Part shown: positions 1 through 57,040 of the stretch, in pieces
How the letters are laid out: every line of letters starts with the position of its first letter
Position numbering within the stretch: position 1 is the first letter of the stretch
UHGV virus genome: UHGV-1368192
Strand: one strand, 5' to 3'
Length of the DNA stretch: 64,000 bases
Source: a virus
Translations under genes and position numbers: made by a program
Notes under the pieces: generated by a model
Database searches by the model: none
The model's input: only the letters and a program-made list of their open reading frames with translations
Told to the model about the DNA's origin: nothing

Positions 1-240
1 TGGCGAGCTACGACGCGTGTCGCTCGCTATGCTCAGCGGTGGGGTACCCACTTTGTGGTGGTACCCATCGCTCCCTGACAAGGGATATTCCCCGCACCCG
101 GGGGGTGCCAACACGGGAGCTAATTGCCGGAGGGGGTCCGAAACGGGAGGATCCTGCGCGGACAAGTTTAGTAGGGAACGAAAATTTTTGGGGTATATTT
201 TTTTTAGCGCTGGTATAGTGATTATCTGTGTGGTGAGTAT

Positions 241-413
241 GGGTATTATGGTTGAGGAGGGGATGGTGTATTATGATTGAGGAGGCGAGAGTGGATGCGC
301 TTGGTGGTCTAGAGTGATGGTGCTGTAGGTATGTGGCCTTGGTGGTGTGGGTTTGAGGAAGAGGGTAATTTGGTTGAGGGTGGTGGAAGTGGCGTTGGGT
401 AATTTGGTTGAGG
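241..413 (+). repeat. Iteron-like direct repeats GGGTAWTWTGGTTGAGG, 4-5 copies. Exact 17-bp copies sit at 363-379 and 397-413; diverged copies at 241-257 and 266-282; a partial copy at 349-358.
   Basis: Direct reading. The repeats lie in a strongly G+T-skewed stretch, and the two exact copies are spaced 34 bp apart. Confidence 0.6.
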
Positions 414-496
414 AAAGATAAGTATGTATCTTTGGTCTGAGAAGTTTCGACATAACTGTTTGGTATTTATCGTAGGATACGTGTTGCCCGGGATGG

Positions 497-1190
497 GTGG
501 CACGTATTCGTTTTATATGTATCTTTGTGGTGCTGGGTTTTGAGCTTTTTCCCAGCAGATCATTTCCATTGGTTTATAGTTTGATTTAGGGTACGCGTTG
601 TCTGGGAAGATAGCGCGTATCACTTTTATGCATATCTTTGCGGTAGGGGAGTCTTCCCCTCGTGTGTGCCATTGTTTGTATGCATCACTTCTATTGAGGT
701 GGTGCATACTTCTTTATGTATGTATTATCTTTGCTGTGTAGATGATTGCTTCATCATATTGATTGTTTAGTTAGGGGTTACATGCGTCATTCTTAGGGGT
801 GGCGCATGTTTCTTATAAAGTGGTTATATTTGCAGAGGAAAGTCTTCTATCATATTAGGATTATCATTGTTGTTAAACTGAGTTATGCGCATTGCCTGTA
901 TAGGTAGTGCGCATTTCTTTTGTATCTTTGGGTGTGGATATAATAGGTAATTGGCTTATCAAGTATAGCTTGATATTGGTACGCACTGCCTGGGAAGGTG
1001 GTGCGTATTGCTTTTGGGGATTTGAGGAAGGAGTGGTATCTTTGCTGTGTAATAAATCTTATCGTTATTCTTGGGCTGTGGGGTTAGTCCCACAATTTCC
1101 ATTTCAAGTTTGTCTATCAGCTGTGCGCTACTCGGGAGAGTGGCGCATGGTGTTTTGGTAGGTTGTGGATTATATATACCTTTGCAGTGA
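497..1190 (+). repeat. Seven tandem promoter-like repeats: A 497-532, B 608-646, C 696-737, D 796-838, E 901-937, F 979-1049, G 1135-1188. Each has a GGTGGYGCRTA-like core followed by TAT(n)TTTG.
   Basis: Every unit ends in a match to the Bacteroidetes sigma-A -7 consensus TAnnTTTG, followed by YRGTG. Units F and G also have TTTG 19-20 nt upstream, which is the -33 element spacing. Confidence 0.6.
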
Positions 1191-1249
1191 AGGGTGGCGA
1201 CCTTTCTGCATCGTATCTTATCTTTTATCTCTGGCCCCTCGGGGCGTTA

Positions 1250-1323
1250 GGGTGTGATCCAAAGGCTTGGGCCTGACTTTGTCGGGTGGCTGACGCTGAG
1301 GTGGTTCGATTCCCCCGCACTCT
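1250..1323 (+). tRNA. tRNA-like element, possibly degenerate, about 74 nt, with a canonical T-loop GGTTCGATTCC.
   Basis: GGTTCGATTCC at 1303-1313. A 7-bp acceptor pairing gggtgtg/cgcactc is possible if two G-U wobbles are allowed. The D arm, anticodon arm and T-stem could not all be made canonical by hand. Confidence 0.3.
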
Positions 1324-1327
1324 ACTA

Positions 1328-1383
1328 CTGACTGGTGCTGTAGGCACGCGTGACGACGCTAGGGTTTGATTCCCTACGGTCAG
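1328..1383 (+). other. Truncated tRNA-like fragment with a clean T-arm (TAGGG-TTTGATT-CCCTA) and an acceptor pairing ctgactg/cggtcag. At about 56 nt it is too short for a full tRNA.
   Basis: Direct reading; it lacks room for both a D arm and an anticodon arm. Confidence 0.2.
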
Positions 1384-1737
1384 GTCTTATCACTGCTCTT
1401 TCCTCATGAGGAAGACAGTAAACACACATTGCGCTTGTAGGGCCCTATCCCCGAAGGCGATGGTCCGCGACTGATAGGTCGGTCATGCGGATAGTGGTGT
1501 GAGATGGCTGTATTTCTAGAGTATGGCTCGGTGCGCTTTACGACTCACGAATGGGGGACACCAAAAATCGTCCTAAGATCCCCTGCCAATCAAAAGACGC
1601 GTATCGTCTTCTTCATAGGGCCTAACCCCAAGGATGCCGTACAGGTCCTATAATGACGCTCACCTTTCCATAGGGTGGGCGTCGCCTTTTATACGCCACC
1701 ACAATATCCTCTTTCCTCAGGCCATATCTTTATGCCT

Positions 1738-1745
1738 TACCTTTG
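1738..1745 (+). promoter_or_regulatory. Bacteroidetes-type -7 box TACCTTTG, 25 nt upstream of the ATG at 1770.
   Basis: Matches TAnnTTTG; its position relative to the first structural-module gene fits a promoter. Confidence 0.45.
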
Positions 1746-1769
1746 TGGCATAACATAGTACGTACATAT

Positions 1770-3245
1770 ATGGCAAAAGATAATCAACCACAAATATCAG
1801 TACCTCTACGTGCGGCCGCTGACTCTACCAAGGTCAAGCGGTTCTACAGTAGTGGTAATGGCTCTGTCAACACTACTGGGTTTGGCGAGTATATAAGCCA
1901 GTCCAACAACGTGGCCAACGATACTGACACCGGGGACCTTGCTTCTAAGCTGGCTAATGCTGGGGCTATTGGATCTATAGGTGCTACGCTAGCTGCTATC
2001 ACAGGTAGGATAGGTGTCAATGCTGCCTACTCTGGTGGTAAGACCCTTGTGAAGCCCATTGCGAGGACCGCCTATGGTGTAAAAGCTATTGGGAGGAATA
2101 TCGCTGATAGGGTCATGAGGAAGGAGGTAATAGTTCCTATCGGAGAGAATGCCGCTCGATATGCAAGTGAGGCTGATAAGGCTGGCTCTTGGTTTGGTAA
2201 GGCAGCTAATGCTGAGGCTGCCATCGTTGGTGACAAGGCCCTCAAGGGTGGCGCTAAGCTGGCTAAGTTCGCAAAGTACTCTAAGTTCATCAAGTGGGCT
2301 GGTCCCTTGGCTACAGCCGCTGATGTGGGGATTTCAGCTATAGCCTCTAACGCCGCACTACATGGGAAGTACGATCCTGAAAAGCTGCCTAGGTATAACA
2401 CCGGCGAAGTGGGTGATGATATACCTGGCTATAGGATAGGAAGCCATGCAGGTCTCGTCAACCCTAGTGGTGTTGGCAATAATGTTCTTGGTACAGCTGG
2501 TGAGTTCATACACGGCACCGCCTCAATGTTTGATGGTGCGAGCTCTCTACCTGGCAAGGCGGCCAAGGGGCTGGTAGGCCTTGTCGCCTCCGATGAGACG
2601 GCGACAAAGTACCAGAAGGGTATGGATGGTATTGTCCGCACGATGAAGGGAGCTCTTGGGGTCAAAGAGAATCCTCTTAACCTGGTCAAGAAGGCGGCTA
2701 GCATGATAACGGTAGAGGGCGACCAGGATGTCAACAAGGTTTATGGCAAGGATATGCGCGGTCGTATGATGGCAGACCTCTTCGTCAGAGCTAAGATGCG
2801 CGGCATGGAGGGTGTACCTAACTCTTACATGGCTGTTAACTCAGCCGAAGCTGAAGCAGCTAAGCTCTATAAGGAAGGTAAGCTGGAGAAGGCTGCACTG
2901 GACCAGACACCTGCAGAGATATTCTACAACCCATCTAAGGAGCGTGGCTACAACAAGGACCCTATGATGAACATGGCTGCTTACTACCCTGGTGATGACA
3001 GGTACCCAGTCTATATGCACACCCTCAGGCAGGCATACGCTGAGAAGCATGCAGGTAACAACCCCAAGTCACTTGAGTATAAGAAGTTCGAGCAGGTCTT
3101 CGATAGCTATCTCTCCTCAACCGCTACTAACAGAGGTGGCGAGAATGAGGACATCAGAGATGAGATAAGGAAGGAAGCATTTGACTACTACCACCAGAAG
3201 CGCAAGGCAGCTGCAGAGAAGCGCTATGAGCCTATCAAGAAATAG
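1770..3245 (+). CDS. Gly/Ala-rich virion-associated protein with glycine-zipper-like segments; hypothetical.
   Basis: 491-aa ORF. The start was moved to MAKDNQ, downstream of the -7 box. It contains A/G-rich repeats such as LANAGAIGSIGATLAAITG. Confidence 0.6.
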   Translation: MAKDNQPQISVPLRAAADSTKVKRFYSSGNGSVNTTGFGEYISQSNNVANDTDTGDLASKLANAGAIGSIGATLAAITGRIGVNAAYSGGKTLVKPIARTAYGVKAIGRNIADRVMRKEVIVPIGENAARYASEADKAGSWFGKAANAEAAIVGDKALKGGAKLAKFAKYSKFIKWAGPLATAADVGISAIASNAALHGKYDPEKLPRYNTGEVGDDIPGYRIGSHAGLVNPSGVGNNVLGTAGEFIHGTASMFDGASSLPGKAAKGLVGLVASDETATKYQKGMDGIVRTMKGALGVKENPLNLVKKAASMITVEGDQDVNKVYGKDMRGRMMADLFVRAKMRGMEGVPNSYMAVNSAEAEAAKLYKEGKLEKAALDQTPAEIFYNPSKERGYNKDPMMNMAAYYPGDDRYPVYMHTLRQAYAEKHAGNNPKSLEYKKFEQVFDSYLSSTATNRGGENEDIRDEIRKEAFDYYHQKRKAAAEKRYEPIKK

Positions 3246-3892: not shown

Positions 3893-4458
3893 TTAAGCTC
3901 TTCAAGAAAGAAGGGCTTGACATAGTGATCTCTGAGGAAGCCTACCTGCTGAAGCCCTTCGCGGATATCTGGAAGAAAGATAAGTCCAAGAATAAGGCTA
4001 CCGCTCAGCTGGAGCTGGCTTTCATATACTTCTTCGCAGACCCCAGATCAGAGTACCAGATGTACAATGATCCTGAGGAAAGGACGAAGATGATAGTAGA
4101 GGGTTTAGGGATGGAGTCCGGATGGGCCCCATCCCCTCTCGTTACTGAGGCTATCACTTTCTATGAGTCGTTCAAGCCCGTATCAGCCAAGCTACTCGAT
4201 AGCACAAGAGGACTCATAAATAAGCTCTCAGCATTCTTAGAGGAGATCGACTTCCATGCGGTGGATGATAAGGGCAAGCCCCTCTATCAGCCAAACACTA
4301 TCACTAACACCATCAAACAGCTCCCTGCACTGGTATCTACTCTCAATGAGGTAGAGAAGACCATGAACTCTGATATTGAGGAGAGCTCAGCTATCCGCGG
4401 TAGCATGAGGAAGGCTGTGGGTGAGGATGCCTTTGACTTTAGTGACGATGACGATTGA
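3889..4458 (+). CDS. Hypothetical protein; possibly the terminase small subunit, judged only by position upstream of TerL.
   Basis: 189-aa ORF immediately upstream of TerL and translationally coupled to it. Confidence 0.5.
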   Translation: MIKLFKKEGLDIVISEEAYLLKPFADIWKKDKSKNKATAQLELAFIYFFADPRSEYQMYNDPEERTKMIVEGLGMESGWAPSPLVTEAITFYESFKPVSAKLLDSTRGLINKLSAFLEEIDFHAVDDKGKPLYQPNTITNTIKQLPALVSTLNEVEKTMNSDIEESSAIRGSMRKAVGEDAFDFSDDDD

Positions 4459-6709
4459 GCTTAATGAATATCAGACACCGCTAGAGGTCCTCACGCCAGA
4501 CATGCCTGAGGAGGTGAAGGAGCAGATGGATGACTTCATCCAATCTGTCCCCTTCATCCAGCACCTCATAAGCCCACACCGCAAGCGCGCTAAGGACCTG
4601 CAGCGTGATGAGCGTGGTCGTATCATAGTAGACATCGCCCATCCTCATATCCTTGAGGACATGGACTACTTCAGGCCTGCAGCTATACACTTCGAGAAGT
4701 ACGGCTGCTACACCAAACTCAAGCCTAATACCAACCCTTCATCTCCCTTTGGGCAATGGCTCCGTGAGGAGACAAGAAGAGTCCTTGACGGCTACGTGCG
4801 TGAGTCTGATGGCGAGTGGATAACAGGCGACCTGTACTTTTACCTAAACTACAGTCCTATCATGGTCTCTAAGATCAGAGAGGACCAGCCAGGTGTAGCT
4901 GACCGCGTGGAGGCATTTCCTGAGATGTGGGAGGGTGTGTACTGGAGATACCACTACCTGTATCAAGCGCGTAATGGAGGTATGTATAATGCCTTCCAGG
5001 GTGGTAATCATGCCTTTGAGCTAGCTCGTCGTGGTGCAGGTAAGTCCTACTCTCTAGCCTCACTCATGGCTAAGCGTCTCCTTGTCGGTGAGTCTAAGAA
5101 GGTGCAGAAGCGCGTGACCAGCGTTCTTCTTGGCTATATCAAGGAATACCTGCAAGACAAGGACGGTACGCTCTCTAAGTTCGAGCCGATGATGAACTTC
5201 GTCAGATCTCATACCGAGTGGCCCAATAGTCTCGTGAGGAACAGCATGAGCGATATGATGTGGCGTTGCGCATACATCGATCCTCGCACAGGAGCGGTAG
5301 AAGGGAAGAACAACGTCGTCATGGGACTGCCTGTCAAGGATGATGACTCTAAGGCGCGTGGTAAGCGTGGTTGGATCTTCATCGAGGAGTTCGGTTCATT
5401 CCCTTCCCTCATCGACCTATACAACACCATCATGTACTCTGTTGAGGAAGGTGGTGTGACCTTCGCGCTTATCTATGGTGTTGGTACGGCTGGTTCTGAT
5501 GAGTCTGAGTTCTCCTCAGCACAGGAGATCATGTACCACCCTGTAGCCTACAAGGTCTACAACGTGCCTAACGTCTACGACAAGGCCACAGGTGGTAGCA
5601 AGGATCGCTTCTGCTTCTTCTTCCCGGCGTACGTCAATCGTAAGGGTTGCTACAACATCGATGGTGTCTCTGACGTGACTAGGGCTCTCTATGAGATCCT
5701 GATGGATAGGTACCGTATCAAGTACAGCACGACCAACCAGGACACGCTGATACGAAGGATCGCGGAAATGCCTATCGTTCCTCAGGAGGCTATCCTGCAG
5801 GTTAAGGCTAGCTACTTCCCATCCCACGCCTTGAGAGAGAGACTGGCTGAGATCGATAATGACCCATCCTTCTATGCAGGTGTAATCTCCTGTGAAGTGT
5901 CGCGCAAGGGTTATGATGTGAGTATCCATCCTGTCAATGACCTTCCCATCCGTAACTTCCCATTGCCAGACAATAAATCTGCAGGGCATGTTGAGATCTT
6001 CGCTATGCCAGAGAAGGATGCTGATGGCAAGGTGCAGCAGGGTAGGTACATCGCGGCTATGGACCCATACGACAACGACCAGGCGGATACCTCCTCCTTA
6101 GGATCGTTCTTCGTCCTGGACCTCTTCACCGATGAGATCGTCTGTGAATACACCGGTAGACCTACATTCTCAGATGACTTCTACCGCACCTGCTGTGACA
6201 TAGCTATCCTCTACGACTGCCGTATATGCTATGAGAATAACAAGAAGGGTCTCTTCGCCTACTGCTCAAGGTACAACCTCACGCACCTACTTGAGGACAC
6301 ACTTGAGTTCCTACGTGACAGGGACCTCCTCAAGGCAAGGCCTATTGGTAATGCAGCTAAGGGTGTGACAGCTACTGCCGGTATCAACGCCTATGCTAGG
6401 AAGAAGCTCGCTGAGTGGCTCGTCCAGCCTGTGAGTATAACAAGGCAGACAGATGAGGGTGAGGTCTACGAGCAGGATATGCCTAACCTATGCAGGATAA
6501 AGAATCGTGCTCTTCTTCAGGAGCTCATAGCGTGGAATGACATAGGTAACTTCGACCGCGTGTCAGCAATGGGTATCCTGATGTTGTACAGAGAATCAAT
6601 GCTCATAAACTTCCAAGAGCATGATGATGAGACGCAAGAAGAGATTGATAGCAAGATGAGCTTCTTTAATCGCAATCTGCGTAGGGATAGGCGCAAGCCT
6701 TATCTTTAA
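4448..6709 (+). CDS. terL: Terminase large subunit.
   Basis: Walker A-like motif RRGAGKSYS at about 5027-5050. The C-terminal half is Asp-rich (DPYDNDQAD) and nuclease-like. The size is about 750 aa. The start overlaps the upstream stop (ATGACGATTGA). Confidence 0.75.
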   Translation: MTIELNEYQTPLEVLTPDMPEEVKEQMDDFIQSVPFIQHLISPHRKRAKDLQRDERGRIIVDIAHPHILEDMDYFRPAAIHFEKYGCYTKLKPNTNPSSPFGQWLREETRRVLDGYVRESDGEWITGDLYFYLNYSPIMVSKIREDQPGVADRVEAFPEMWEGVYWRYHYLYQARNGGMYNAFQGGNHAFELARRGAGKSYSLASLMAKRLLVGESKKVQKRVTSVLLGYIKEYLQDKDGTLSKFEPMMNFVRSHTEWPNSLVRNSMSDMMWRCAYIDPRTGAVEGKNNVVMGLPVKDDDSKARGKRGWIFIEEFGSFPSLIDLYNTIMYSVEEGGVTFALIYGVGTAGSDESEFSSAQEIMYHPVAYKVYNVPNVYDKATGGSKDRFCFFFPAYVNRKGCYNIDGVSDVTRALYEILMDRYRIKYSTTNQDTLIRRIAEMPIVPQEAILQVKASYFPSHALRERLAEIDNDPSFYAGVISCEVSRKGYDVSIHPVNDLPIRNFPLPDNKSAGHVEIFAMPEKDADGKVQQGRYIAAMDPYDNDQADTSSLGSFFVLDLFTDEIVCEYTGRPTFSDDFYRTCCDIAILYDCRICYENNKKGLFAYCSRYNLTHLLEDTLEFLRDRDLLKARPIGNAAKGVTATAGINAYARKKLAEWLVQPVSITRQTDEGEVYEQDMPNLCRIKNRALLQELIAWNDIGNFDRVSAMGILMLYRESMLINFQEHDDETQEEIDSKMSFFNRNLRRDRRKPYL

Positions 6710-6734: not shown

Positions 6735-9152
6735 ATGAACGAAAAGAAACAAAAGGGTGGATTTCCTCAACAGAATCTCCCTAATAGCAGAAAGACACGT
6801 GACTGGTGCATCCAGTGCGTGGACTGGGCGAAGGGAACATCCTCTGTTGCTTCCTCATCGTCCGTAAGGCATAGCATCGCAAGGAAGAAGATTAACTATG
6901 ACCTCATCAATGGTATCGTCCATGAGGAGGATATGATGGCTTTCTTCAACCCCTATGACTTCGCTGATCATGATGCCCCCGGCAAGGTACAGCACTTTCC
7001 TATCATCAACTCTAAGATCAATGTCCTCCTCGGTGAGGAATCGCGTAGGCCCTTTGACTACCGTGTCATCGTGACCAACCCTACTGCGGTGTCAGATATG
7101 GAGGAGATGAAGAAACAGCAGGTGATGGAGAACATCATGGCTGTTATGGAGTCTGGTATCCAGGACGAGGCACAGCTCAAGGAAGCCTTCAACGAGATAC
7201 AGCATAGGTACGCCTATAAGTGGCAAGACCTGCGTGAGATCCGTGGTAATGCCTTCCTCAAGCACTACTCCTCCGAACTCTCCCTACCACTGATGTTCAA
7301 CAAGGGATTCCTTGACGCACTCATCGTGGGTGAGGAGATATACAGGTGTGATATCGTAGCTGGTGAACCTACTATCGAGAGACTCGACCCTATGAAGGTG
7401 CGAGTGTTCAAGTCTGGATCATCAGGTAGCATTGAAGATGCCGACATCGTTGTGGTGGAAGACTACTGGTCCCCATCACGTATCCTTGATGTCTATGGAG
7501 ATAGTCTGACGAAGGAAGAGATCGACAAGATACACTCTGGCTCTTCCTCAGGACTTATAGGTGGTGAAGGAGATAACTTCACGGTCGCAGAGATGTTTGG
7601 TCGTTTTGGTATCCATTACTCTGGGCCTAACGATACAGCTATATACAACGGCACTACTGTGGCTTCCTCACTCACCCCTTATGACTTTGAAGGTAACGTG
7701 CGCGTCATGCAGGTCTACTGGAAGTCCATCAGGCAGGTGAAGAAGATTACCTCTGTCGATCCTATGACAGGTGCAGAGGTGTCTACGCTTATGCCTAGTG
7801 ACTACAAGGTTGATGAGCTCGCTGGTGAGACCGCGAAGATCATGTACATCAATGAGGCGTGGGAAGGTGTGCTTATCGGTAATGATATCTATGCTAACCT
7901 TGGCCCCAGGAAGATCCAGTTCAACAGGCTCTCCAATCCTTCCAAGTGCCACTTCGGTATTATCGGTAGTGTCTATAACCTCAGCGACGACAAGCCTTAT
8001 TCTCTCGTCGATATGATGAAGCCTTATAGCTACATGTACAATCTTGTGCATGATAAACTCAATAAGATCATCTACGACAACATCGGTAAGGTCGTGCAGC
8101 TGGATATGGCTAAGCTCCCCGGCAAGATGGAGTATCCAGAGTGGTGGTCCGTCCTGAGGAGGATGAAGATGGCTGTGACCAACTCTTTTGAGGAAGGGAA
8201 GGTAGGTGTTGCCAAGGGTAAGCTAGCCGGCGCACTGAACAACAACGTAGCTGCGTCTATCGACCTTGACCTCTCCTCATCTATCATGAACCACATACAG
8301 CTCCTCGCCTCTATCAAGGAGGAGATGGCTGACGTGGCTGGTATCTCAAGACAGCGTGAAGGTCAGATCTACAATAGGGAGACCGTAGGAGGTGTCGAAC
8401 GCGCCACACTGCAGTCCTCGTATATCACAGAGTGGATATTCACTATCCATGAGGATGTCAAGAAGCGCGCGTTAGAGTGCTTCCTCGAGGTAGCAAAGAT
8501 TTCACTACGCTATGGATCAAAGAAGTTCGAGTACATCCTTCCAGACCAGTCTAGGCAGATCATGTCTGTCGGAGGAGAAGAGTTTGCAGAGTGCGACTAT
8601 GGTATCACTATTGATTCTTCTCGTGGGACGATGGAGATCAATCAGAAGCTGGATATGCTGGCTCAAGCCGCTCTCCAAAATCAGGCCATTGACTTCTCTG
8701 CTATCATCAAACTCTATCAGTCCATCTCTATCGCTGAGAAGGCAAGCATCATTGAGCAGGGTGAGCAGGCTATGCGTCAACGTCAGGCTGAGCAGGCACA
8801 GGCTCAACAGCAAGCTGAACAACAGGCTGCAGAACAGCAAATGCAGCTCAAGATGGCTGAGCTCGATCTCAAGGACCGAATTAGTCAACGTGAAGTGGAC
8901 GCCCAGCTTGAGATTGCTAAGATGAAGGAGGCGTTTGGCTTCGGTCAGACAATCTTCCGTATCGACGATGACGTGTTCTCTGAGGAAGAGCAAAAGACTC
9001 TCGAGCAGTCCGATAGGCAGTTCGATGAGAAAATGAAGCTCGAGAAGGAGAAGCTCGCGGCCAACAACAAATACAAGCAGCGACAACTGGAGATCCAGGA
9101 GCAAGCTGCAAAGGCAGCCAGTGCCAAGGTGGTATCTGGTAAAAAGAAGTAG
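6735..9152 (+). CDS. Putative portal protein.
   Basis: 805 aa, directly after TerL, which is the crAss-like gene order. The C-terminus is a Q/A/E-rich coiled coil. Confidence 0.5.
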   Translation: MNEKKQKGGFPQQNLPNSRKTRDWCIQCVDWAKGTSSVASSSSVRHSIARKKINYDLINGIVHEEDMMAFFNPYDFADHDAPGKVQHFPIINSKINVLLGEESRRPFDYRVIVTNPTAVSDMEEMKKQQVMENIMAVMESGIQDEAQLKEAFNEIQHRYAYKWQDLREIRGNAFLKHYSSELSLPLMFNKGFLDALIVGEEIYRCDIVAGEPTIERLDPMKVRVFKSGSSGSIEDADIVVVEDYWSPSRILDVYGDSLTKEEIDKIHSGSSSGLIGGEGDNFTVAEMFGRFGIHYSGPNDTAIYNGTTVASSLTPYDFEGNVRVMQVYWKSIRQVKKITSVDPMTGAEVSTLMPSDYKVDELAGETAKIMYINEAWEGVLIGNDIYANLGPRKIQFNRLSNPSKCHFGIIGSVYNLSDDKPYSLVDMMKPYSYMYNLVHDKLNKIIYDNIGKVVQLDMAKLPGKMEYPEWWSVLRRMKMAVTNSFEEGKVGVAKGKLAGALNNNVAASIDLDLSSSIMNHIQLLASIKEEMADVAGISRQREGQIYNRETVGGVERATLQSSYITEWIFTIHEDVKKRALECFLEVAKISLRYGSKKFEYILPDQSRQIMSVGGEEFAECDYGITIDSSRGTMEINQKLDMLAQAALQNQAIDFSAIIKLYQSISIAEKASIIEQGEQAMRQRQAEQAQAQQQAEQQAAEQQMQLKMAELDLKDRISQREVDAQLEIAKMKEAFGFGQTIFRIDDDVFSEEEQKTLEQSDRQFDEKMKLEKEKLAANNKYKQRQLEIQEQAAKAASAKVVSGKKK

Positions 9153-9159
9153 TTAATAT

Positions 9160-11286
9160 ATGAGTAACATTTTCGAGTTAAGGGACAAAATGAGCTCCCT
9201 TACAGGTAGGAGGGATACGGACTTCCCAGAGTCCGCCCCACTCCGAGGAGATGAGAAGATTCCTATCGTGCAGGGCAACGTCAATGTCCTGGCCACGGTA
9301 GCGGACCTCCTCTCTGTGGATCAGTCAACCTACCACTCCGTGCCTCCTAGCGTACGGACTATCGAAGCTCTGATGGATTACGTCGACAAGAAGCAGATCC
9401 CCTCGTTCAAGACGGCGGGATCTGTCTACTCATACTTCGATATGGACTCAGGTCTGTGGGAAGTGGTGAGGTACATCGGTGCGTCGACGCGATCTGAGGA
9501 TGTTAAGAACGTGGGTAACTGGGAATGGCTCTCCTCAGGATCAAGTTCCTTCAAGGGACTCTTCGGCACCAAGCGTGAGCTTGAGGTAGCTGTCCGTCGT
9601 CCAAGGGTAGGCGATCACGCCTTCGTGGGTGAGACGCTCGTCACCTCCACGATGTACAAGTGTCGTCTTGATGGCTTCTGGGAAGCATCAAGCACTAATC
9701 CCTTCCAGGACTTCATCTCCGGGCAGGGATACATCGTTTCTGAACCTACCGAGTATTTCGGTGCTCCTATTGAGGAGATCATCGCTGACAGGGCTATCGC
9801 CGACAGTGAGGGTCATGTGATCTCACAGACCTATGTCACGAGGTGTATGCTTGAGGAAGCAGTGCAGTACGCAAAGGGTAACATCGGTATTGAGGATCTA
9901 TCCCCTGAGGTCATCGCTTACCTCATTGGCATCCGTACTACTGGCATCCTTCCTAACAGTGAGGACCTGAAGTTCAACGATAAGAATGAGCTGTCCTTCG
10001 CTGACCGCAAGGCTTCAGAGACCGAGTATCTCGGGTATGGGTATGTCTACATGAGGAAGAACATAGTCGACAAGACCAACCTCCTCGAGCAGCACATGAT
10101 CGATAAGGAGAACACCATCTACGATGTTCGCTATACCTACGATCTTGATGGGCAGACTATCAACATCCCTAGTAATACTGTCCTTGACCTCACCAGCGGT
10201 GGTGCTTTCAAGAATGGTAAGATCCGTGTTGGCGAGAACGTCGTCATCAAGGTCTTCCGTATGGACCAGATCTGTGTCGATGTCGAAGGTGATCCTAAGT
10301 ACATCGATGCTGTGAGGAAGGGAGACAAGGGTGATCCCGGTGAGAAGGGTGCTGATGGTGCTCGTGGTCCACAGGGTCTTCCTGGTCGTGATGGCGCTCC
10401 TGGTGCCCCTGGACGTAACGGTATAGACGGTAGGCCCGGTCGTGATGGTCGTGATGGTATCAACGGCTCTAACGGTGCTAATGGTAAGGATGGTGCCCCT
10501 GGTATCACCCCAAGGCTCAAGGTAGAGGATAACAAGCTCTATGTGTCCTACGACAACAAGCAGACGTGGGAATGGCTGTACACCTTCACTAGCGGTGGTG
10601 GTGTAGTACCTGCACCTGAGCCTAGTCCTACGCCTGATCCTACACCTAAGCCTCCTACGCCACAGCCGGATCCCACTCCTGATCCTCCTCAACCAAAACC
10701 TGAGGAGCCTTCACAGCCTTCGTGCTCTACTGTCTTCCTCAACCGCGCAGACTACAACCTTGCATCTTACCACGACGGACTACCTGAAGGTATCTACGCA
10801 TATAGGGTCTGTGTAGAAGGTAACGCGAAGAGGAAGGATCACGGAAAGGTTCTGACCGTAGAGAGACTGCCTCTGCAGGATAAGCCTGATGAGAGGTGTG
10901 GTCCTGAAGAGTTTGTCAGTCCTATCATCGAGGATGAGATCTCTGTCGACTATGTCGATGTCGTGCAGTTCGTAGAGGACGTTGTCCCCAACGGCACTCG
11001 TGGTGTCCTCTCAGTGCTCCTGAGGAAGGGCGAGGCACGTAGGTACGATGAGAAGACCATTGATGCTCTCCTGGATAAGTACATGCGTCTTGAGCTCGCT
11101 ACATACTCTCTCTGTGAGGTTGTGAGGGATGGTCGCACTACGCTTGTCTACAAGCGCGTACACATCCTTGATCCTATCAACAGGGATAGAGATGTACTCT
11201 GCAATGTCGTAGAGAAGGATGCTATCGTAAGAGAACTGTCAGCAAGAACGTCTAACTACCCATTTGTCAAGTATGTCAAGAATTAG
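9160..11286 (+). CDS. Collagen-like repeat fibre protein.
   Basis: About 20 consecutive G-X-Y triplets at 10321-10503, then a Pro/Thr-rich linker PAPEPSPTPDPTPKPPTPQPDPTPDPPQPKPEEP at 10609-10716. Confidence 0.75.
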   Translation: MSNIFELRDKMSSLTGRRDTDFPESAPLRGDEKIPIVQGNVNVLATVADLLSVDQSTYHSVPPSVRTIEALMDYVDKKQIPSFKTAGSVYSYFDMDSGLWEVVRYIGASTRSEDVKNVGNWEWLSSGSSSFKGLFGTKRELEVAVRRPRVGDHAFVGETLVTSTMYKCRLDGFWEASSTNPFQDFISGQGYIVSEPTEYFGAPIEEIIADRAIADSEGHVISQTYVTRCMLEEAVQYAKGNIGIEDLSPEVIAYLIGIRTTGILPNSEDLKFNDKNELSFADRKASETEYLGYGYVYMRKNIVDKTNLLEQHMIDKENTIYDVRYTYDLDGQTINIPSNTVLDLTSGGAFKNGKIRVGENVVIKVFRMDQICVDVEGDPKYIDAVRKGDKGDPGEKGADGARGPQGLPGRDGAPGAPGRNGIDGRPGRDGRDGINGSNGANGKDGAPGITPRLKVEDNKLYVSYDNKQTWEWLYTFTSGGGVVPAPEPSPTPDPTPKPPTPQPDPTPDPPQPKPEEPSQPSCSTVFLNRADYNLASYHDGLPEGIYAYRVCVEGNAKRKDHGKVLTVERLPLQDKPDERCGPEEFVSPIIEDEISVDYVDVVQFVEDVVPNGTRGVLSVLLRKGEARRYDEKTIDALLDKYMRLELATYSLCEVVRDGRTTLVYKRVHILDPINRDRDVLCNVVEKDAIVRELSARTSNYPFVKYVKN

Positions 11287-14990: not shown

Positions 14991-16952
14991 ATGAGTTGCG
15001 GATGTAACAAGGAGGTATATAAGCGACCTGAGCGTGAGCCTAAGAAGGTCCACGTCGAACAGCTTTACAGGCGCATCGATCAGACACCTTGCTCCATGGA
15101 GAGTAAGAGAGCCGTCTATCCTCAGACCGTCATGCAGGCTGTCTTTGATGGGTACACCGGCAAGCGTCTTGATCATGTGCTCACCATGGCCAACCATATC
15201 TATCTCCCATGGCGAGGCTGCCTCAAGGATACCCTTAGGCAGATCCCTCGTGGCGTTCGTCGTCGCGGGCTCGTCATCACTACGGTAGATGGTTCAGGTC
15301 AGGTTATCACGAGGCAGTACACCGGCTCCTGCAGCGATGGCTGTAAGGAGATCACCAATCCTAGGCACTGGTCTCCCATCGGCGCAAACAAGGATACGTT
15401 CTACAAGCCCTACAACATCAGGATGCAGGGTCAGAACCTCATCACTGAGTTTGTCGACGACCGCGGAAAGCTCCACGCTCTTCAGACGAAGATCGATGGT
15501 CTCTTCAGGTATGAGGTGAAGACCAGGGCATTCCTTGGCGCACCTGAGATGGCTGAGGAAGGAGTGATCTACCTGGTGCCTAACGATGATGCTCCCGGCA
15601 CGTTCCGCGAGTTCATGAAGGTTAGCTACATGCGTAATGGCCAGCTCGTCCACAAGCTCGAGCAGTTTGGTAGCGCCTCGGGTATCTGCCAGCGACAGGG
15701 TGCTCCTGATAGGAGTCTCAAGAGCGTAGTCTACGAGAACGGTGAGCTTGTCTTCCGTGTAGGTCTTAGTCCTGAGATTGATGCTGACGGATCACTTGAC
15801 GAGGTACTGCGTGTACCTTTTGCTGTTGAGAACGGTAACCTCGAGGCTCTGGAGCGTAGGGTGAAGGTTCTTGAGAACAAGGAGGACAAGGATACGATCT
15901 TCAATCCTTCTTCTCTCCTCAAGACCATTGAGGACCTGACGAACGAGTTGAAGGCTGTCAAGGCTAAGCAGGCAGAGCTGGAGCGTAAGCAGGATGTGTT
16001 CGCTGTCTCTGGTGAGTGGGTCAATGATGACACTATCAAGATCATCAACAACAACGGTACTAGCTTCCTCATCTCCAAGAATGTCGTGCAGGAATGGCGT
16101 GAGCTCCCAGCTAAGACGACCTTTGATCCTCCTCTGCCTGTAGAGTGGGACACGGCTACCGATCCTACACTCTACGCTGACGAGTCAACTGTCGTACGCA
16201 CCGCAGTTCTCGGCAAGCGAGTCGTGGTTGAGGAAGAGCTGTATCGCAATGGCCAGCCTACTGGTACCAAGCGCACGAAGAGCGATGTGCACACCCCAGG
16301 TGTAGCAGAGATGCGCAGGCGTGGTGCTAAGAAGCGTCCTGTCGTCACGACGCAGGTAGTAGTAGAGAAGGAGCCTATTCAGCCTGGACCTAACGGACCT
16401 GACCAGTACGACAATAACGCCTATGAGGATGTCATCGTCACCGTACAGCCTGTTGTTGGTGAGCGCCAGCGCAATGTCACCTACACGCTCATCGATGGTG
16501 TACGACAGGGTAATCCTCAGTACGGCGAGTGGACTGTCACTAAGCCTGCTAAGCCAGGGTACAGGGTCGTAGGTAGGAAGAAGAGGCCAGTGGCAGAGAC
16601 CTACACGACTTACCTCGGTAAGTACCCACATAGGAGCGGTGTCGGTGAGGAAGGACATCCTATAACATCTGCAGACCTCAAGGGGCTTACAGCTACTGTA
16701 GCTTCCTCACCTGCAGAGGTCTTCAAGGAGATCACTGTGGTGTCTCACGAGAACTCTAAGTTCTCCTATGCTTATCCCAAGAGTCTCGGTCCTGTGACCA
16801 AGATCATCGATGGTTCCAATGATGACATTAGGGAGAACTTCGATGAGACCACGGTGAGCGTTGATGGTGTAGACTATCTCGTCTATACGATCGCTGCACC
16901 TTTCGGCTCCACGAGAAAGCGTCAAGAAATCCCATTCACTTTTGTTAAGTAA
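14991..16952 (+). CDS. Hypothetical structural, fibre-like protein.
   Basis: 653-aa ORF with an internal coiled coil (LEALERRVKVLENKEDKD). Confidence 0.6.
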   Translation: MSCGCNKEVYKRPEREPKKVHVEQLYRRIDQTPCSMESKRAVYPQTVMQAVFDGYTGKRLDHVLTMANHIYLPWRGCLKDTLRQIPRGVRRRGLVITTVDGSGQVITRQYTGSCSDGCKEITNPRHWSPIGANKDTFYKPYNIRMQGQNLITEFVDDRGKLHALQTKIDGLFRYEVKTRAFLGAPEMAEEGVIYLVPNDDAPGTFREFMKVSYMRNGQLVHKLEQFGSASGICQRQGAPDRSLKSVVYENGELVFRVGLSPEIDADGSLDEVLRVPFAVENGNLEALERRVKVLENKEDKDTIFNPSSLLKTIEDLTNELKAVKAKQAELERKQDVFAVSGEWVNDDTIKIINNNGTSFLISKNVVQEWRELPAKTTFDPPLPVEWDTATDPTLYADESTVVRTAVLGKRVVVEEELYRNGQPTGTKRTKSDVHTPGVAEMRRRGAKKRPVVTTQVVVEKEPIQPGPNGPDQYDNNAYEDVIVTVQPVVGERQRNVTYTLIDGVRQGNPQYGEWTVTKPAKPGYRVVGRKKRPVAETYTTYLGKYPHRSGVGEEGHPITSADLKGLTATVASSPAEVFKEITVVSHENSKFSYAYPKSLGPVTKIIDGSNDDIRENFDETTVSVDGVDYLVYTIAAPFGSTRKRQEIPFTFVK

Positions 16953-16957
16953 TAAAC

Positions 16958-17497
16958 ATGGCAAGTAATTTCAAGAACATAGCCATCACCTTTGGCTATG
17001 AAGGGGATCTCCCCAACTTCGAGCGCGACCAGTTCGCCACTCTGTCGGATATGAAGCAGGTCGTCGACACCATCGACGAGGGTCACATGTCCTTCTGTAA
17101 GGAGACGAAGAAGCACTACGTCTTCCACTCTTCTAACACCCTCGATGCAACGACCGGTAAGTGGAGGGAGATCGCTGACCCTGCCGAGGTAGCTGCAAGC
17201 AAGCAGACCATCGAGGCTCAGAAGACTAAGCTCCAGTCTATCGAGGGCACCGTCAACCAGCAGAAGCAGACCATTAGCCAAGCTAAGGGTAAGGCTGATG
17301 AGAACGCTGGCAAGATCGCTACCCTTGAGTCTACTATCCAGCAGCTGCAGGCTAAGATCACTCAGCTGGAGTCCGCTCCTGCGCATGAGGATCAGATCAC
17401 TTTCCTCAAGTCGATCGCTGAGTATGAAGCTCTGCCTACGGAGAAGAAGAACAAGGACAAGCACCTCTTCGTAATCGGTAAGACTACTGAAGTATAA
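16958..17497 (+). CDS. Coiled-coil protein.
   Basis: 179 aa with a Q/K-rich heptad region. The overlapping antisense ORF 16922-17464 is L/S-rich and was rejected. Confidence 0.55.
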   Translation: MASNFKNIAITFGYEGDLPNFERDQFATLSDMKQVVDTIDEGHMSFCKETKKHYVFHSSNTLDATTGKWREIADPAEVAASKQTIEAQKTKLQSIEGTVNQQKQTISQAKGKADENAGKIATLESTIQQLQAKITQLESAPAHEDQITFLKSIAEYEALPTEKKNKDKHLFVIGKTTEV

Positions 17498-17502
17498 AGA
17501 CC

Positions 17503-25041: not shown

Positions 25042-25348
25042 AGAAATAGTAGACCTCCTGCTTGACTACTACGATTGTCTTAGCAGGGGCGAGACAAAGG
25101 ACGACAAGGATCTGCTCATCGCTATAGAGGTAGCTATCATTGACAGGACCTCGCTAGGGCTATATGCCACGGTAGAGGAATACAGGTCGATGCTATCTAT
25201 CCTTTCCTCAGAGCTATCTTTGTGTGGGGTTGACTTCGGCGCAGGCGATCTCATCCTCAATGACCCTGTAGAATCCAACAAGAGACTCAGGGTGACACAG
25301 CGTTGCGAGATACGCGTCGCTGATGGTACCTTTAGAATTGAAGTGTAA
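25031..25348 (+). CDS. Hypothetical small protein.
   Basis: The start was refined to ATG 25031, which overlaps the upstream stop (ATGACCGATAG). Confidence 0.45.
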   Translation: MTDREIVDLLLDYYDCLSRGETKDDKDLLIAIEVAIIDRTSLGLYATVEEYRSMLSILSSELSLCGVDFGAGDLILNDPVESNKRLRVTQRCEIRVADGTFRIEV

Positions 25349-32966: not shown

Positions 32967-32974
32967 CGTACCTT
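32967..32974 (+). promoter_or_regulatory. -7 box TACCTTTG, 27 nt upstream of the ATG at 33001.
   Basis: Matches TAnnTTTG. A GGTGGCGAG motif lies 22 nt upstream. Confidence 0.4.
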
Positions 32975-57032: not shown

Positions 57033-57040
57033 CAAAGGTA
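57033..57040 (-). promoter_or_regulatory. -7 box TACCTTTG, 28 nt upstream of the ATG at 57004.
   Basis: The reverse complement of caaaggta matches TAnnTTTG. Confidence 0.45.

Follow-up and report, generated by a model that had tools for sequence, protein, structure and literature searches.

The window analysed here, a stretch of 64,000 nucleotides from a crAss-like phage, begins with 1.77 kb in which no gene is apparent, and the question raised by this stretch, called the hub below, is whether it serves the phage as DNA, in the manner of a replication origin or packaging site, or is read into RNA. Both possibilities had been put forward in an earlier note made from the sequence alone, together with a role as an early-promoter region. 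No phages of the human gut are more abundant than the Crassvirales, whose RNA biology is almost unexplored. The function of strongly transcribed long non-coding regions in a crAss-like transcriptome has been left unassigned (bioRxiv 10.1101/2020.03.07.982082), and a limited literature search on the crAss-like phage order returned neither an arrangement such as the one described here nor a paper on the small RNAs of these phages.

The gene-free region and its relatives

The hub (positions 1–1769 of the window) forms the right-hand 80% of a divergent intergenic region of ~2.2 kb, which is kept in all of the ~20 relatives found, with nucleotide identities of 77–98%. In full-length relatives the region runs ~430 nt farther to the left, up to the start of a minus-strand gene (7825–10000 in relative L009). 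The 1.77-kb stretch is therefore not the complete unit that it had been taken for, as the window edge cuts it, whilst the minus-strand genes that had been guessed to lie opposite are present in full-length relatives such as L009. Downstream of the hub lies the packaging and structural operon, as had been stated, with the large terminase encoded at 4421–6709.

The region might, as the earlier note allowed, have been absent or unconserved in close relatives; instead, 14 of the 15 loci found in IMG/VR share 81–95% identity with it across the entire hub length, the fifteenth contig spanning only the right end. Conservation of the promoter array (86.5–98% nucleotide identity) is comparable to that of the adjoining genes (83–95%). 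A DNA search of GenBank phages with positions 1–1800 as the query gave no match, and GTDB genomes contained neither an exact match to one of the tRNA-like elements described below (TLS2) nor a terminase relative. Homologues of Gene 1, the first gene of the operon, are close ones only among 5.8 billion proteins, and distant copies of the hub are therefore not to be expected.

The hub holds no conserved reading frame, in agreement with the previous statement that it has no credible ORF. Nine ORFs of 47–87 aa within 1–1769 were compared with the relatives, in nearly all of which eight are disrupted by frameshifts or stops; the remaining one (959–1102, minus strand) is mostly intact and lies in near-invariant sequence, yet is disrupted in four of 16 relatives. 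No PHROG match was obtained for the two longest hub ORFs. The largest other gap in the window (306 nt, 25042–25347) is occupied by a frame that extends from within 24863 as far as 25348, and the next-largest intergenic gap is 183 nt, so that the description of all other gaps as shorter than 200 bp also stands.

The five repeat or structure classes named in the earlier note are all present, namely GC-rich hairpins, G+T repeats, a promoter array, tRNA-like elements and 3′ GC-rich hairpins. No Rfam family reached its gathering threshold in the hub or in the whole window. The features are as follows.

1–158, no strand assigned: GC-rich conserved hairpins, extending ~430 nt past the left window edge in full-length relatives
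183–210, no strand assigned: AT-rich tract AAAATTTTTGGGGTATATTTTTTTT between the GC-rich hairpins and the G+T repeats, read from the sequence
231–419, plus strand: G+T-rich, C-poor repeats, a unit of ~19 nt in four copies (240–258, 265–283, 362–380, 396–414)
427–514, plus strand: candidate unit U1, with −7 box TATCTTTG at 427–434, predicted RNA ~440–514, terminator 475–509 followed by TTTT; z-score −3.1
520–627, plus strand: candidate unit U2, with −7 box 520–527, 5′ hairpin 532–556, terminator 590–621 followed by TTTT; z-score −4.5
633–715, plus strand: candidate unit U3, with −7 box 633–640, 5′ hairpin 646–659, terminator 678–709; z-score −6.3
726–815, plus strand: candidate unit U4, with −7 box 726–733, 5′ hairpin 741–755, block GATTGTTTAGTTAGGG, terminator 780–809; z-score −5.4
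825–921, plus strand: candidate unit U5, with −7 box TATATTTG at 825–832, block GTTGTTAAACTGAGT, terminator 885–914 followed by a T-run; z-score −4.3
923–1015, plus strand: candidate unit U6, with −7 box 923–930, 5′ hairpin 957–975, terminator 978–1009 followed by TTGCTTTT; z-score −3.9
1037–1157, plus strand: candidate unit U7, with −7 box 1037–1044, hairpin 1077–1094, terminator 1120–1151 followed by TTTT; z-score −4.3
1177–1690, plus strand: candidate unit U8, predicted RNA of ~500 nt, with −7 box TACCTTTG at 1177–1184, terminator 1655–1683 followed by TTTT
1248–1324, plus strand: TLS1, cloverleaf-like, from the consensus fold and a below-threshold Rfam tRNA-Sec match
1328–1383, plus strand: TLS2, a 56-nt mini-cloverleaf, from the consensus fold and a below-threshold Rfam mascRNA-menRNA match
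1384–1503, plus strand: near-invariant structured domain with hairpins P1–P3 (helices 22–28), P1 being CTCTTTCCTCA/TGAGGAAGACAG
1504–1653, plus strand: variable part of U8, with hairpin positions kept and sequences replaced among relatives (judged by eye)
1738–1769, plus strand: operon promoter and leader, with −7 box TACCTTTG at 1738–1745; the start codon of the packaging and structural operon is at 1770

Plus-strand units between 420 and 1690

The plus strand of positions 420–1690 probably consists of RNA genes, seven short units and a long one, and for this part of the hub the proposed cluster of small RNA genes is well supported: host-type promoter boxes and terminators confined to a single strand are joined by compensatory base changes and by G·U pairs that form in the plus-strand reading alone. 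Nine TAnnTTTG boxes, all on the plus strand (427, 520, 633, 726, 825, 923, 1037, 1177 and 1738), lie within 1.3 kb, against ~0.5 expected from the window-wide rate; the whole 64-kb window holds 26 on both strands, against 17.8 expected. Eight of the nine are then followed by a hairpin and T-run. The TAnnTTTG motif is the −7 consensus of sigma-ABfr and is found upstream of 81% of the primary start sites of B. thetaiotaomicron (PMC7366714). Among the ~150 instances of the box in the relatives, nearly every one preserves TA and TTTG whilst the middle two bases vary, and the boxes of U8 (17 of 17 relatives) and of the operon at 1738 (18 of 18 sequences) are invariant. When the aligned sequences upstream of the boxes were inspected by eye, no consistent −33 TTTG element stood at the distance expected for it; this element was likewise not recovered in some Bacteroidota (PMC7366714). 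In the form TA(T/C)CTTTG the box also precedes protein operons, at 1738 and 32969 on the plus strand and at 57033 on the minus strand.

The tandem promoter-like array of the earlier note can thus be retained, as nine boxes of sigma-ABfr type, but its role in early transcription is not supported as stated. The boxes are of host type, no TAnnTTTG box was found for the minus-strand operon facing the hub, and in phage phi14:2 it is the middle and late genes that are transcribed by the host RNA polymerase, the early genes being served by a virion polymerase without a recognizable upstream motif (bioRxiv 10.1101/2020.03.07.982082).

Terminator-like hairpins are equally one-sided, with eight on the plus strand, where 2.3 would be expected, and none on the minus strand. 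The scan recovered seven of the eight unit terminators, the tail of U6 being TTGCTTTT. The terminator stems are maintained by compensatory changes, and all eight share the 3′-arm word RGGTRGYGCRYR (GGUGGYGCRUA), within which the positions of the G·U pairs are constant; this word occurs nine times in the hub and seven times elsewhere in the window, the latter close to the ~8 that chance alone would give for the whole window. The 5′ ends of the RNAs are predicted to lie a few bases 3′ of each TTTG, and the 3′ ends near 514, 627, 715, 815, 921, 1015, 1157 and 1690.

Conservation of structure was assessed in 17 genomes from three clades, over 215 pairs in 29 helices (3606 base-pair cells). Of these cells, 98.8% are paired, compared with 38–51% when the partners are slid, although the structure was derived from the window sequence itself and the percentage paired is thereby inflated. 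Changes on both sides were seen in 21 pairs, against 8.9 ± 1.8 in shuffles (none of 500 reached 21) and 1–7 when slid; as the 17 genomes amount to only three clades, the number of independent events behind these compensatory changes is small. G·U pairs account for 17.1% of the cells and only 82.0% would pair if read as the minus strand, so that the fold works on the plus strand only. Each unit also folds 8–16 kcal/mol better on the plus strand, with z-scores of −3.1 to −6.3.

The seven short units (U1–U7) share an anatomy of −7 box, body of 35–70 nt and terminator hairpin of 13–15 bp with a U-run, giving a predicted RNA of ~70–110 nt, and their bodies usually comprise a small 5′ hairpin and a conserved single-stranded U/G-rich block. 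Compensatory pairs support U1 (two in helix 1, whose 15 pairs are 100% paired), U4 (three in helix 7), U5 (two in helix 8) and U6 (three in helix 10), whilst in helix 5 of U3 five pairs are altered on one side only, via G·U intermediates, and U2 and U7 are backed by the alignment and by helices 2 and 3, and 11 and 12, respectively. Invariant blocks of 12–27 nt, predicted to be unpaired or weakly paired, lie outside the hairpins of U1, U2, U4, U5 and U7 in all three clades; that of U2 is ATTGGTTTATAG and that at the 5′ end of U7 is AAATCTTATCGTTATTCTTG. The 5′ hairpins change or are replaced among the relatives, whereas these single-stranded blocks stay invariant. The terminators of U1–U7 are mutually related, suggesting that the units arose by duplication. 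Being intergenic, each with its own promoter and terminator, the seven units have what was required of high-confidence small RNAs in Bacteroides, read coverage aside (PMC7366714).

A CRISPR array was considered and rejected, given that the shared hairpins are 66–79% alike and spaced 93–140 nt apart and that every unit has a promoter and T-run. Other arrays were sought in IMG/VR with the pattern CTTTG-N(83-113)-TAYCTTTG-N(80-110)-TAYCTTTG, and the dense matches, among those listed, were coding tandem repeats (periods of 24–54 nt) or microsatellite rather than RNA arrays.

Eight co-oriented promoter–terminator units directly upstream of a packaging and structural operon also bring to mind the PR′–6S RNA–tR′ arrangement of phage lambda, in which a constitutive promoter and a nearby terminator give a short RNA in the same position. 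On this model the hub would be a stack of promoter-proximal terminated transcripts controlling the late operon through anti-termination; the conserved bodies could then hold factor-loading sites, and the weak T-run of the U4 terminator in the second clade would fit. The model is nonetheless quite unlikely. The lambda locus differs in that the hub has eight units and that the operon has a consensus promoter of its own, at 1738, after the last terminator. No Q-like factor or other anti-terminator gene was found, the neighbouring proteins having no informative family match. Seven distinct conserved bodies and a tRNA-like operon would be superfluous, and read-through would burden the operon with a structured leader of up to 1.3 kb.

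The long unit is best considered apart from the other seven. U8 opens with a leader, after which come the two tRNA-like elements, a domain that is conserved, hairpins that vary and, at the end, the terminator (helix 29); GC-rich hairpins span 1384–1690. In its variable part, hairpins found by eye at the same place in different relatives include AAGACG..CGTCTT, AAGGC..GCCTT and GAAGGTA..TACCTTC. The first tRNA-like element, TLS1, has an extended acceptor, a D-like stem (loop of 4 nt), an anticodon-like stem (loop of 3–5 nt), a variable arm and a T-arm with the loop TTCGATT, and scores 27.9 bits against the Rfam tRNA-Sec model (gathering threshold 47). Its anticodon-like stem has two covarying pairs, and the loop triplet varies between relatives. 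The second, TLS2, combines a 7-bp acceptor and a D-like hairpin with a T-arm (loop TTTGATT), the anticodon arm being replaced by a 4-bp tetraloop hairpin; three of its pairs covary, and mascRNA-menRNA is the Rfam family that it matches best, at 34.1 bits (gathering threshold 42.5, E 1.3e-4). A consensus fold of 15 sequences gives TLS2 a four-arm and TLS1 a five-arm cloverleaf-like shape, with five covarying pairs in total.

TLS1 and TLS2 are not decoding tRNAs, as ARAGORN called no tRNA in the window or in five relatives, the 3–5 nt loops are closed by covarying pairs, the triplet is unstable and the Rfam scores are below threshold. The G3·U70 alanine identity was rejected for TLS1, where A-U or G-C replaces G·U in five of 17 genomes. 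A tmRNA was likewise rejected for U8, with no ARAGORN or Rfam match in the window; the same tools found the tmRNA of phi14:2, showing that the method works on crAss-like phages. In clade 3, two genuine tRNA-Ser genes lie directly 3′ of TLS2, replacing P1 and part of P2, which suggests that U8 is a tRNA-type precursor there.

Arrays of 1–34 tRNAs occupy the same or a nearby genomic place in other crAss-like phages (Steigviridae and others). That of cr111_1 is upstream of the operon with HU, chaperonin and terminase, and in the sister genus the distance from the junction is 2.5–4 kb. The host-polymerase middle/late motif often precedes a tRNA gene in other crAss-like phages (bioRxiv 10.1101/2020.03.07.982082). 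Clade 3 resembles these arrays in having two real tRNA-Ser genes inside U8, whereas the window is without any tRNA gene and seven of its eight units are not tRNA-shaped. The syntenic position, together with the failure of both cloverleaf-like elements in tRNA detection, would agree with the hub being a decayed tRNA cluster, made up of non-functional remnants of such an array. This is extremely improbable, however, as U1–U7 have no cloverleaf and are each equipped with a promoter and terminator, conservation equals that of coding genes with stems kept by compensatory changes, and remnants would drift and vanish in so compact a genome.

In shape, TLS2 is similar to the mascRNA of MALAT1/MEN-beta (RF01684), also a mini-cloverleaf in which the acceptor and T arms are combined with a stunted anticodon arm. 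Both mascRNA and the tRNA-like units of murine gammaherpesvirus 68 are likewise embedded in a longer non-coding transcript, beside another RNA domain. From these transcripts they are excised by RNase P and RNase Z. Common descent of TLS2 with the mascRNA-type families of eukaryotes and animal viruses is not plausible, and the likeness is one of shape only.

A gene-free stretch of similar length (1.7 kb) is present in phi14:2, with a TACCTTTG box at its start. Two long intergenic regions of that phage, at the g004–g006 junctions, show rightward transcription exceeding that of most protein genes (bioRxiv 10.1101/2020.03.07.982082), and they are taken to be this stretch. It differs from the window in having no sequence similarity to it, only two terminator-like sites, no promoter–terminator array, and a tmRNA gene, which the window does not have.

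Possible roles of the RNAs

If the units are transcribed as predicted, the host (Bacteroidota) RNA polymerase would read 420–1690 from the plus strand, U1–U7 acting as seven independent small-RNA genes multiplied by duplication, and U8 giving a ~500-nt transcript laid out like a tRNA operon. The short units are built like GibS and MasB (BTnc201, RF04177) of Bacteroides, which are also ~100 nt long with a sigma-ABfr promoter and a Rho-independent terminator, and in which a 5′ hairpin, a single-stranded U/G-rich block and a long terminator hairpin follow one another in the same layout. In cmscan, the best small-RNA match is the MasB model, with which U1 and U4 align end to end, at 20.8 and 18.0 bits against a gathering threshold of 105, a resemblance in shape only and not family membership. 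The units described here differ from GibS and MasB in being phage-encoded, with seven related ones arranged head to tail.

A conserved single-stranded seed of GibS pairs with translation-initiation regions (PMC7366714), and by analogy the seven small RNAs may act in trans as GibS and MasB do, their U/G-rich single-stranded blocks pairing with translation-initiation regions that are rich in A and belong most likely to mRNAs of the host. This pairing mechanism is offered tentatively, as a possibility somewhat short of an even chance. Hosts of this type are not known to have Hfq or ProQ, or to use Shine-Dalgarno pairing. Searches for targets covered phage sequence: the small-RNA bodies showed no complementarity above chance to the rest of the 64-kb window (blastn-short), to the left-arm genes of L009 (blastn-short) or to the start regions of 42 phage genes (RNAduplex, judged against windows inside genes). 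As for U8, RNase P and RNase Z could recognize both tRNA-like elements, and their cuts would then release two small tRNA mimics, with the leader on one side and a stable 3′ RNA of ~300 nt on the other.

The lack of mRNA targets among phage genes would also agree with the RNAs serving instead as decoys or sponges that titrate proteins of the host, for instance an RNA chaperone, an RNase or a defence toxin directed at tRNA. The terminator word RGGTRGYGCRYR common to all eight units could be read in this way, as could the retention of acceptor and T arms in elements that have lost a usable anticodon loop, and the addition of two tRNA-Ser genes at this place in one clade. Duplication of the units explains the shared hairpins equally well, however, and the invariant blocks differ from unit to unit, a difference more readily reconciled with sequence-specific pairing than with a protein ligand common to all. 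As no candidate protein partner was found either, a decoy role is considered unlikely. Less likely still, and at best an outside chance, is that the eight units are guide-like RNAs, with a variable 5′ targeting part and a shared 3′ hairpin handle bound by a phage or host protein. Such a reading fits the handle word found in all eight units and the bodies that differ yet are individually conserved; if true, the phage would carry a small programmable silencing set directed against transcripts of the host or of rival phages.

Whichever role is considered, the conserved locus has sharp limits and precisely predicted ends, and offers seven candidate small RNAs and a candidate tRNA-like operon under consensus host promoters. 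Should these RNAs prove to be made, they would constitute the first candidate small-RNA regulon of a phage infecting Bacteroidota and a direct way into how these phages reprogram their host. The tRNA look-alikes beside the tRNA-Ser genes of clade 3 may additionally provide a natural series from phage tRNA genes to non-decoding mimics.

The left 420 bp

The left 420 bp of the hub form a separate element, which may be regulatory or bear an origin. Positions 1–158 align to all relatives and contain no TAnnTTTG on either strand; their consensus folds with three to four covarying pairs on either strand, the plus strand being slightly better (−48.1 vs −38.5 kcal/mol). The G+T-rich tract at 231–419 reaches a GC skew of 0.78, and in the relatives its copy number varies, with indels of 25–50 nt and an identity of only 71–83%. 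TTGAGGA is contained in each of the ~19-nt repeat units. The G+T iterons of the earlier note therefore exist as repeats, in four copies, but the idea that TGAGGA repeats are specific to the hub was rejected, since the word is hyper-abundant genome-wide and is as dense in the hub as in the genome on average.

That the hub is a replication origin, a packaging site or both, with hairpins, AT-rich tract and iterons acting as DNA where the gene arms diverge, is rather doubtful. The position is suggestive, as the hub sits where the two arms part and the cumulative GC skew climbs from it to a peak near 43 kb, where they converge; the skew merely follows gene orientation, however, and is therefore confounded as an origin signal. 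The either-strand covarying hairpins, AT-rich tract and copy-variable G+T repeats of the left part would suit such a site, whilst the signals of 420–1690 are strand-specific and of RNA type (boxes, T-runs and a 17% share of G·U pairs, which do not pair in the opposite strand), and TGAGGA is no denser here than elsewhere in the genome. Three independently assembled contigs, those of the window, L177 and L007, terminate in the left part no more than ~200 nt apart, and long terminal repeats are known from crAss001 (PMC10136315), but other contig ends are scattered over 2.5 kb and six assemblies pass straight through. An origin or packaging site is thus possible only for the left ~420 bp, and the points that support it are weak. 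Within this part, relative L006 carries an insertion of ~170 nt at 183–210 that duplicates the AT tract and the neighbouring motif.

Extent and conservation of the gene-free stretch

The part of the hub (window 1-1769) between positions 420 and 1690 is predicted from its sequence to hold a cluster of small-RNA genes, one of the readings offered in the earlier note, as evidenced through host-type promoters, terminators, plus-strand structure and conserved unpaired blocks. The gene-free character of the hub is itself confirmed, the stretch being present in all relatives at 77-98% nucleotide identity. In full-length genomes it runs for ~2.2 kb, bounded by gene 1 on one side and by the start of a minus-strand gene on the other (L009 7825-10000), and the window copy therefore lacks ~430 nt at its left. 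The claim that it holds no credible ORF also stands, with eight of the nine ORFs checked (47-87 aa) frameshifted or stopped in nearly all relatives; the single mostly intact one lies in near-invariant sequence, yet is broken in 4 of 16, and the two longest had no match in PHROG. The remaining intergenic gaps in the window are small, as had been noted, a 306-nt gap (25042-25347) being occupied by an open frame, and the hairpins, G+T iterons, promoter-like array, tRNA-like elements and paired repeats described earlier were all found in the hub. A lone 180-aa minus-strand ORF (16922-17464) lies within the plus-strand structural operon; were it spurious, 16953-17502 (~550 nt) would be another gap free of genes.

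In its portal and terminase region the window matches Bacteroides crAss-like phages with a nucleotide identity of 65-69%; the large terminase is a protein of 762 aa (4421-6709). Genes are tightly packed, on the plus strand up to 42.6 kb and on the minus strand beyond. Positions 1-1800 had no match in 50,697 GenBank phage records, and relatives were collected through gene 1 (1770-3242), the first gene of the packaging and structural operon, giving 15 IMG/VR loci together with contigs in ENA and Logan; further relatives were reached through the terminase. A survey of 5.8 billion proteins gave only close homologues of gene 1 (66-95% identity, 13 clusters), so that the group is roughly genus-wide. 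The terminase of a sister genus (L046, L048, L053 and L054) is 58% identical and its gene order is the same. The GC content of that genus is 34%, against 50% in the window, a large compositional shift that presumably reflects different hosts.

The array is as well conserved as the flanking genes, with nucleotide identities of 86.5-98% and 83-95%, respectively. Identity is also mosaic: the array (420-1700) of L009 and L003 shares 98% identity with that of the window, their gene 1 (1770-3245) only 84-89%, and the reverse holds for L002 and L013, a pattern indicative of a recombination boundary lying between gene 1 and the hub.

Promoters, terminators and plus-strand structure

The word TAnnTTTG, the -7 box of the Bacteroidota primary sigma factor (PMC7366714), is present in 26 copies, counting both strands of the window, where 17.8 would be expected, and the hub carries the following:

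427, 520, 633, 726, 825, 923, 1037, 1177 and 1738, plus strand: nine TAnnTTTG boxes

More intergenic copies stand upstream of other operons in the correct orientation, at 32969 (plus) and 57033 (minus), suggesting that this promoter type is used by the phage. Relatives keep TA and TTTG and differ in the two bases between them. On the plus strand, eight terminator-like hairpins, each with a T-run, were identified (2.3 expected), and on the minus strand none; every hairpin is followed after 5-30 nt by the next -7 box. Boxes and terminators together thus delimit seven predicted units of ~70-110 nt (U1-U7) and one of ~500 nt (U8). The same succession could be read as a stack of transcripts, each cut short by its terminator until anti-termination sets in, in the manner of lambda PR'-tR', a reading that is unlikely; gene 1 has a predicted promoter of its own, at 1738.

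Folding of every unit is better on the plus strand, by 8-16 kcal/mol, with z-scores of -3.1 to -6.3. The structure was counted on alignment A3 (17 genomes, three clades) as 29 helices, comprising eight terminators, five 5' hairpins, both tRNA-like elements and three hairpins of the 3' domain. Pairing is kept in 98.8% of 3606 cells, compared with 38-51% after the partners have been shifted by 1-3 columns, the former percentage being inflated by derivation of the structure from the window sequence. Changes on both sides occur in 21 pairs; shuffling gives 8.9±1.8, with none of 500 shuffles attaining 21, and sliding gives 1-7. The changes represent few independent events, as only three clades lie behind them. 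Of all cells, 17.1% are G·U pairs, many of them at positions that do not vary; read on the minus strand, only 82.0% of all cells pair.

The small units and the tRNA-like operon

The 5' hairpins within the small units show compensatory changes or are replaced in clade 3 (L018, L177). Invariant single-stranded blocks of 12-27 nt are found in U1 (GTTTCGACATAACTGTTTG), U2 (ATTGGTTTATAG), U5 (GTTGTTAAACTGAGT) and U7 (AAATCTTATCGTTATTCTTG), and that of U4 (GATTGTTTAGTTAGGG) is closely similar among relatives; most of these blocks contain a U/G-rich core of the UUGUUU type. All eight terminators have the 3'-arm word RGGTRGYGCRYR in common, which suggests that the units are related by duplication. The hub has nine copies of this word; seven more matches lie elsewhere in the window, close to the ~8 that chance would give over its full length. 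A pyrimidine-rich 5' block, nearly invariant in all three clades, is present in U7 (1056-1076, ATCTTATCGTTATTCTTGG) and in the U8 leader (1215-1235, ATCTTATCTTTTATCTCTGG), for which it could provide a seed or a binding site in common.

The layout of U1-U7 is that of GibS (PMC7366714) and MasB, which pair with the start regions of mRNAs, and U1-U7 may likewise act in trans. Their targets would probably be host mRNAs, since none were found in the phage (rest of the window, 42 phage gene starts and L009 left-arm genes). That the RNAs serve instead as protein decoys is unlikely.

In U8, two adjacent cloverleaf-like folds were recovered with RNAalifold from 15 sequences, followed by a well-conserved domain:

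1248-1324, plus strand: TLS1, tRNA look-alike with an extended acceptor stem, D-like stem (4-nt loop), variable arm and T-loop TTCGATT
1328-1383, plus strand: TLS2, 56-nt mini-cloverleaf in which a 4-bp tetraloop hairpin replaces the anticodon arm
1384-1503, plus strand: near-invariant U8 domain downstream of TLS1 and TLS2
L018 543-628 and 635-720; L177 1379-1464 and 1471-1556: tRNA-Ser genes of clade 3

Neither look-alike was called by ARAGORN, and the best Rfam matches are below threshold (tRNA-Sec, 27.9 bits against 47; mascRNA, 34.1 bits against 42.5, E 1.3e-4). That the region is a cluster of decayed tRNA genes is very improbable. The anticodon-like stem of TLS1 is closed by covarying pairs, its loop having 3-5 nt and a triplet that varies between relatives. 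Hairpins 3' of the 1384-1503 domain keep their positions, as read by eye, whilst their sequences are replaced between clades. In clade 3, TLS2 is directly followed by two genuine genes for tRNA-Ser, with UGA and GCU as anticodons and scores of 57.5 and 50.4 bits, where the U8 of the window has hairpin P1 and a portion of P2; in this clade, U8 is thus a precursor of tRNA type. TLS1 and TLS2 may be handled by RNase P and RNase Z, whose cuts would release a leader, two tRNA mimics and a ~300-nt 3' RNA.

The left domain, other crAss-like phages and a frequent word

An origin or packaging site acting at the DNA level, as also proposed previously, is rather unlikely for the hub as a whole and viable only for positions 1-420, where it competes with a physical end and an assembly break. 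This part holds GC-rich hairpins in which some pairs covary, whichever strand is read, as well as an AT tract and G+T repeats of varying number, and contains no host-type box on either strand. GC skew climbs from here to a maximum at the convergence point, tracking gene orientation. Three independent assemblies (window, L177 and L007) have their position 1 within ~200 nt of one another in this part, L177 beginning with a poly-G run, and other contigs end 0.5-2.5 kb further left; the ends near window -185 to +40 suggest either that the assembly breaks there or that the genome physically ends. In L006, an insertion of ~170 nt at the equivalent of window ~176 duplicates a module of AT tract and 'GCGGGAGG' motif, which suggests that the left domain is itself made of repeatable modules. 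No TAnnTTTG box accompanies the minus-strand operon that faces the hub (L009 7825-8060, minus strand). Some 85-110 nt before the start codon of this operon lies GGCTATACTTAGCTGTTGTTGCC, which is invariant and may be another promoter type, for example for the virion RNA polymerase.

Other phages of this order also carry RNA genes. In cr111_1, a tRNA array (record numbering up to tRNA 26) lies upstream of the syntenic operon for HU, chaperonin and terminase. The divergent region of the sister genus is 700 nt long and has no promoter array; ordinary tRNA genes, 6-7 of them, lie 2.5-4 kb off. In phi14:2, two long intergenic regions of unknown function out-transcribe most genes (Drobysheva et al., bioRxiv 10.1101/2020.03.07.982082), and these are taken to lie in its 1.7-kb gene-free stretch. 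That stretch (L178, NC_021806) contains a tmRNA gene (4031-4500, plus strand) detected by ARAGORN and Rfam, with the tag GSSVQKLAMVA* (ARAGORN) and 46 bits in Rfam (E 2.6e-16), one bit below the gathering score, and missing from the RefSeq feature table. The tRNA arrays and this tmRNA suggest that RNA-gene islands are recurrent in the order, that of the window being one whose content is new. No paper dealing with small RNAs in crAss-like phages turned up in a strict literature search. Taken singly, sRNA genes and tRNA arrays of phages are already known, as are tRNA-like processing elements; what is new in Crassvirales is the combination of seven related autonomous units with a tRNA-mimic operon, rather than a new kind of system.

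The commonest 6-mer of the window is TGAGGA (reverse complement TCCTCA), with 319 copies against ~31 expected (253-260, 1023-1030, 1407-1414 and ~310 more throughout); TGAGGARR occurs 205 times against 17.0±3.8. Coding regions hold 185 sense and 116 antisense copies, compared with 74.5±6.6 and 31.6±5.2 under synonymous-codon shuffling, an excess that argues for selection at the DNA level. A Chi-like, protein-binding or modification site are among the possible roles, and the density is ~5 per kb in all close relatives against 0.3-0.7 per kb in the sister genus.
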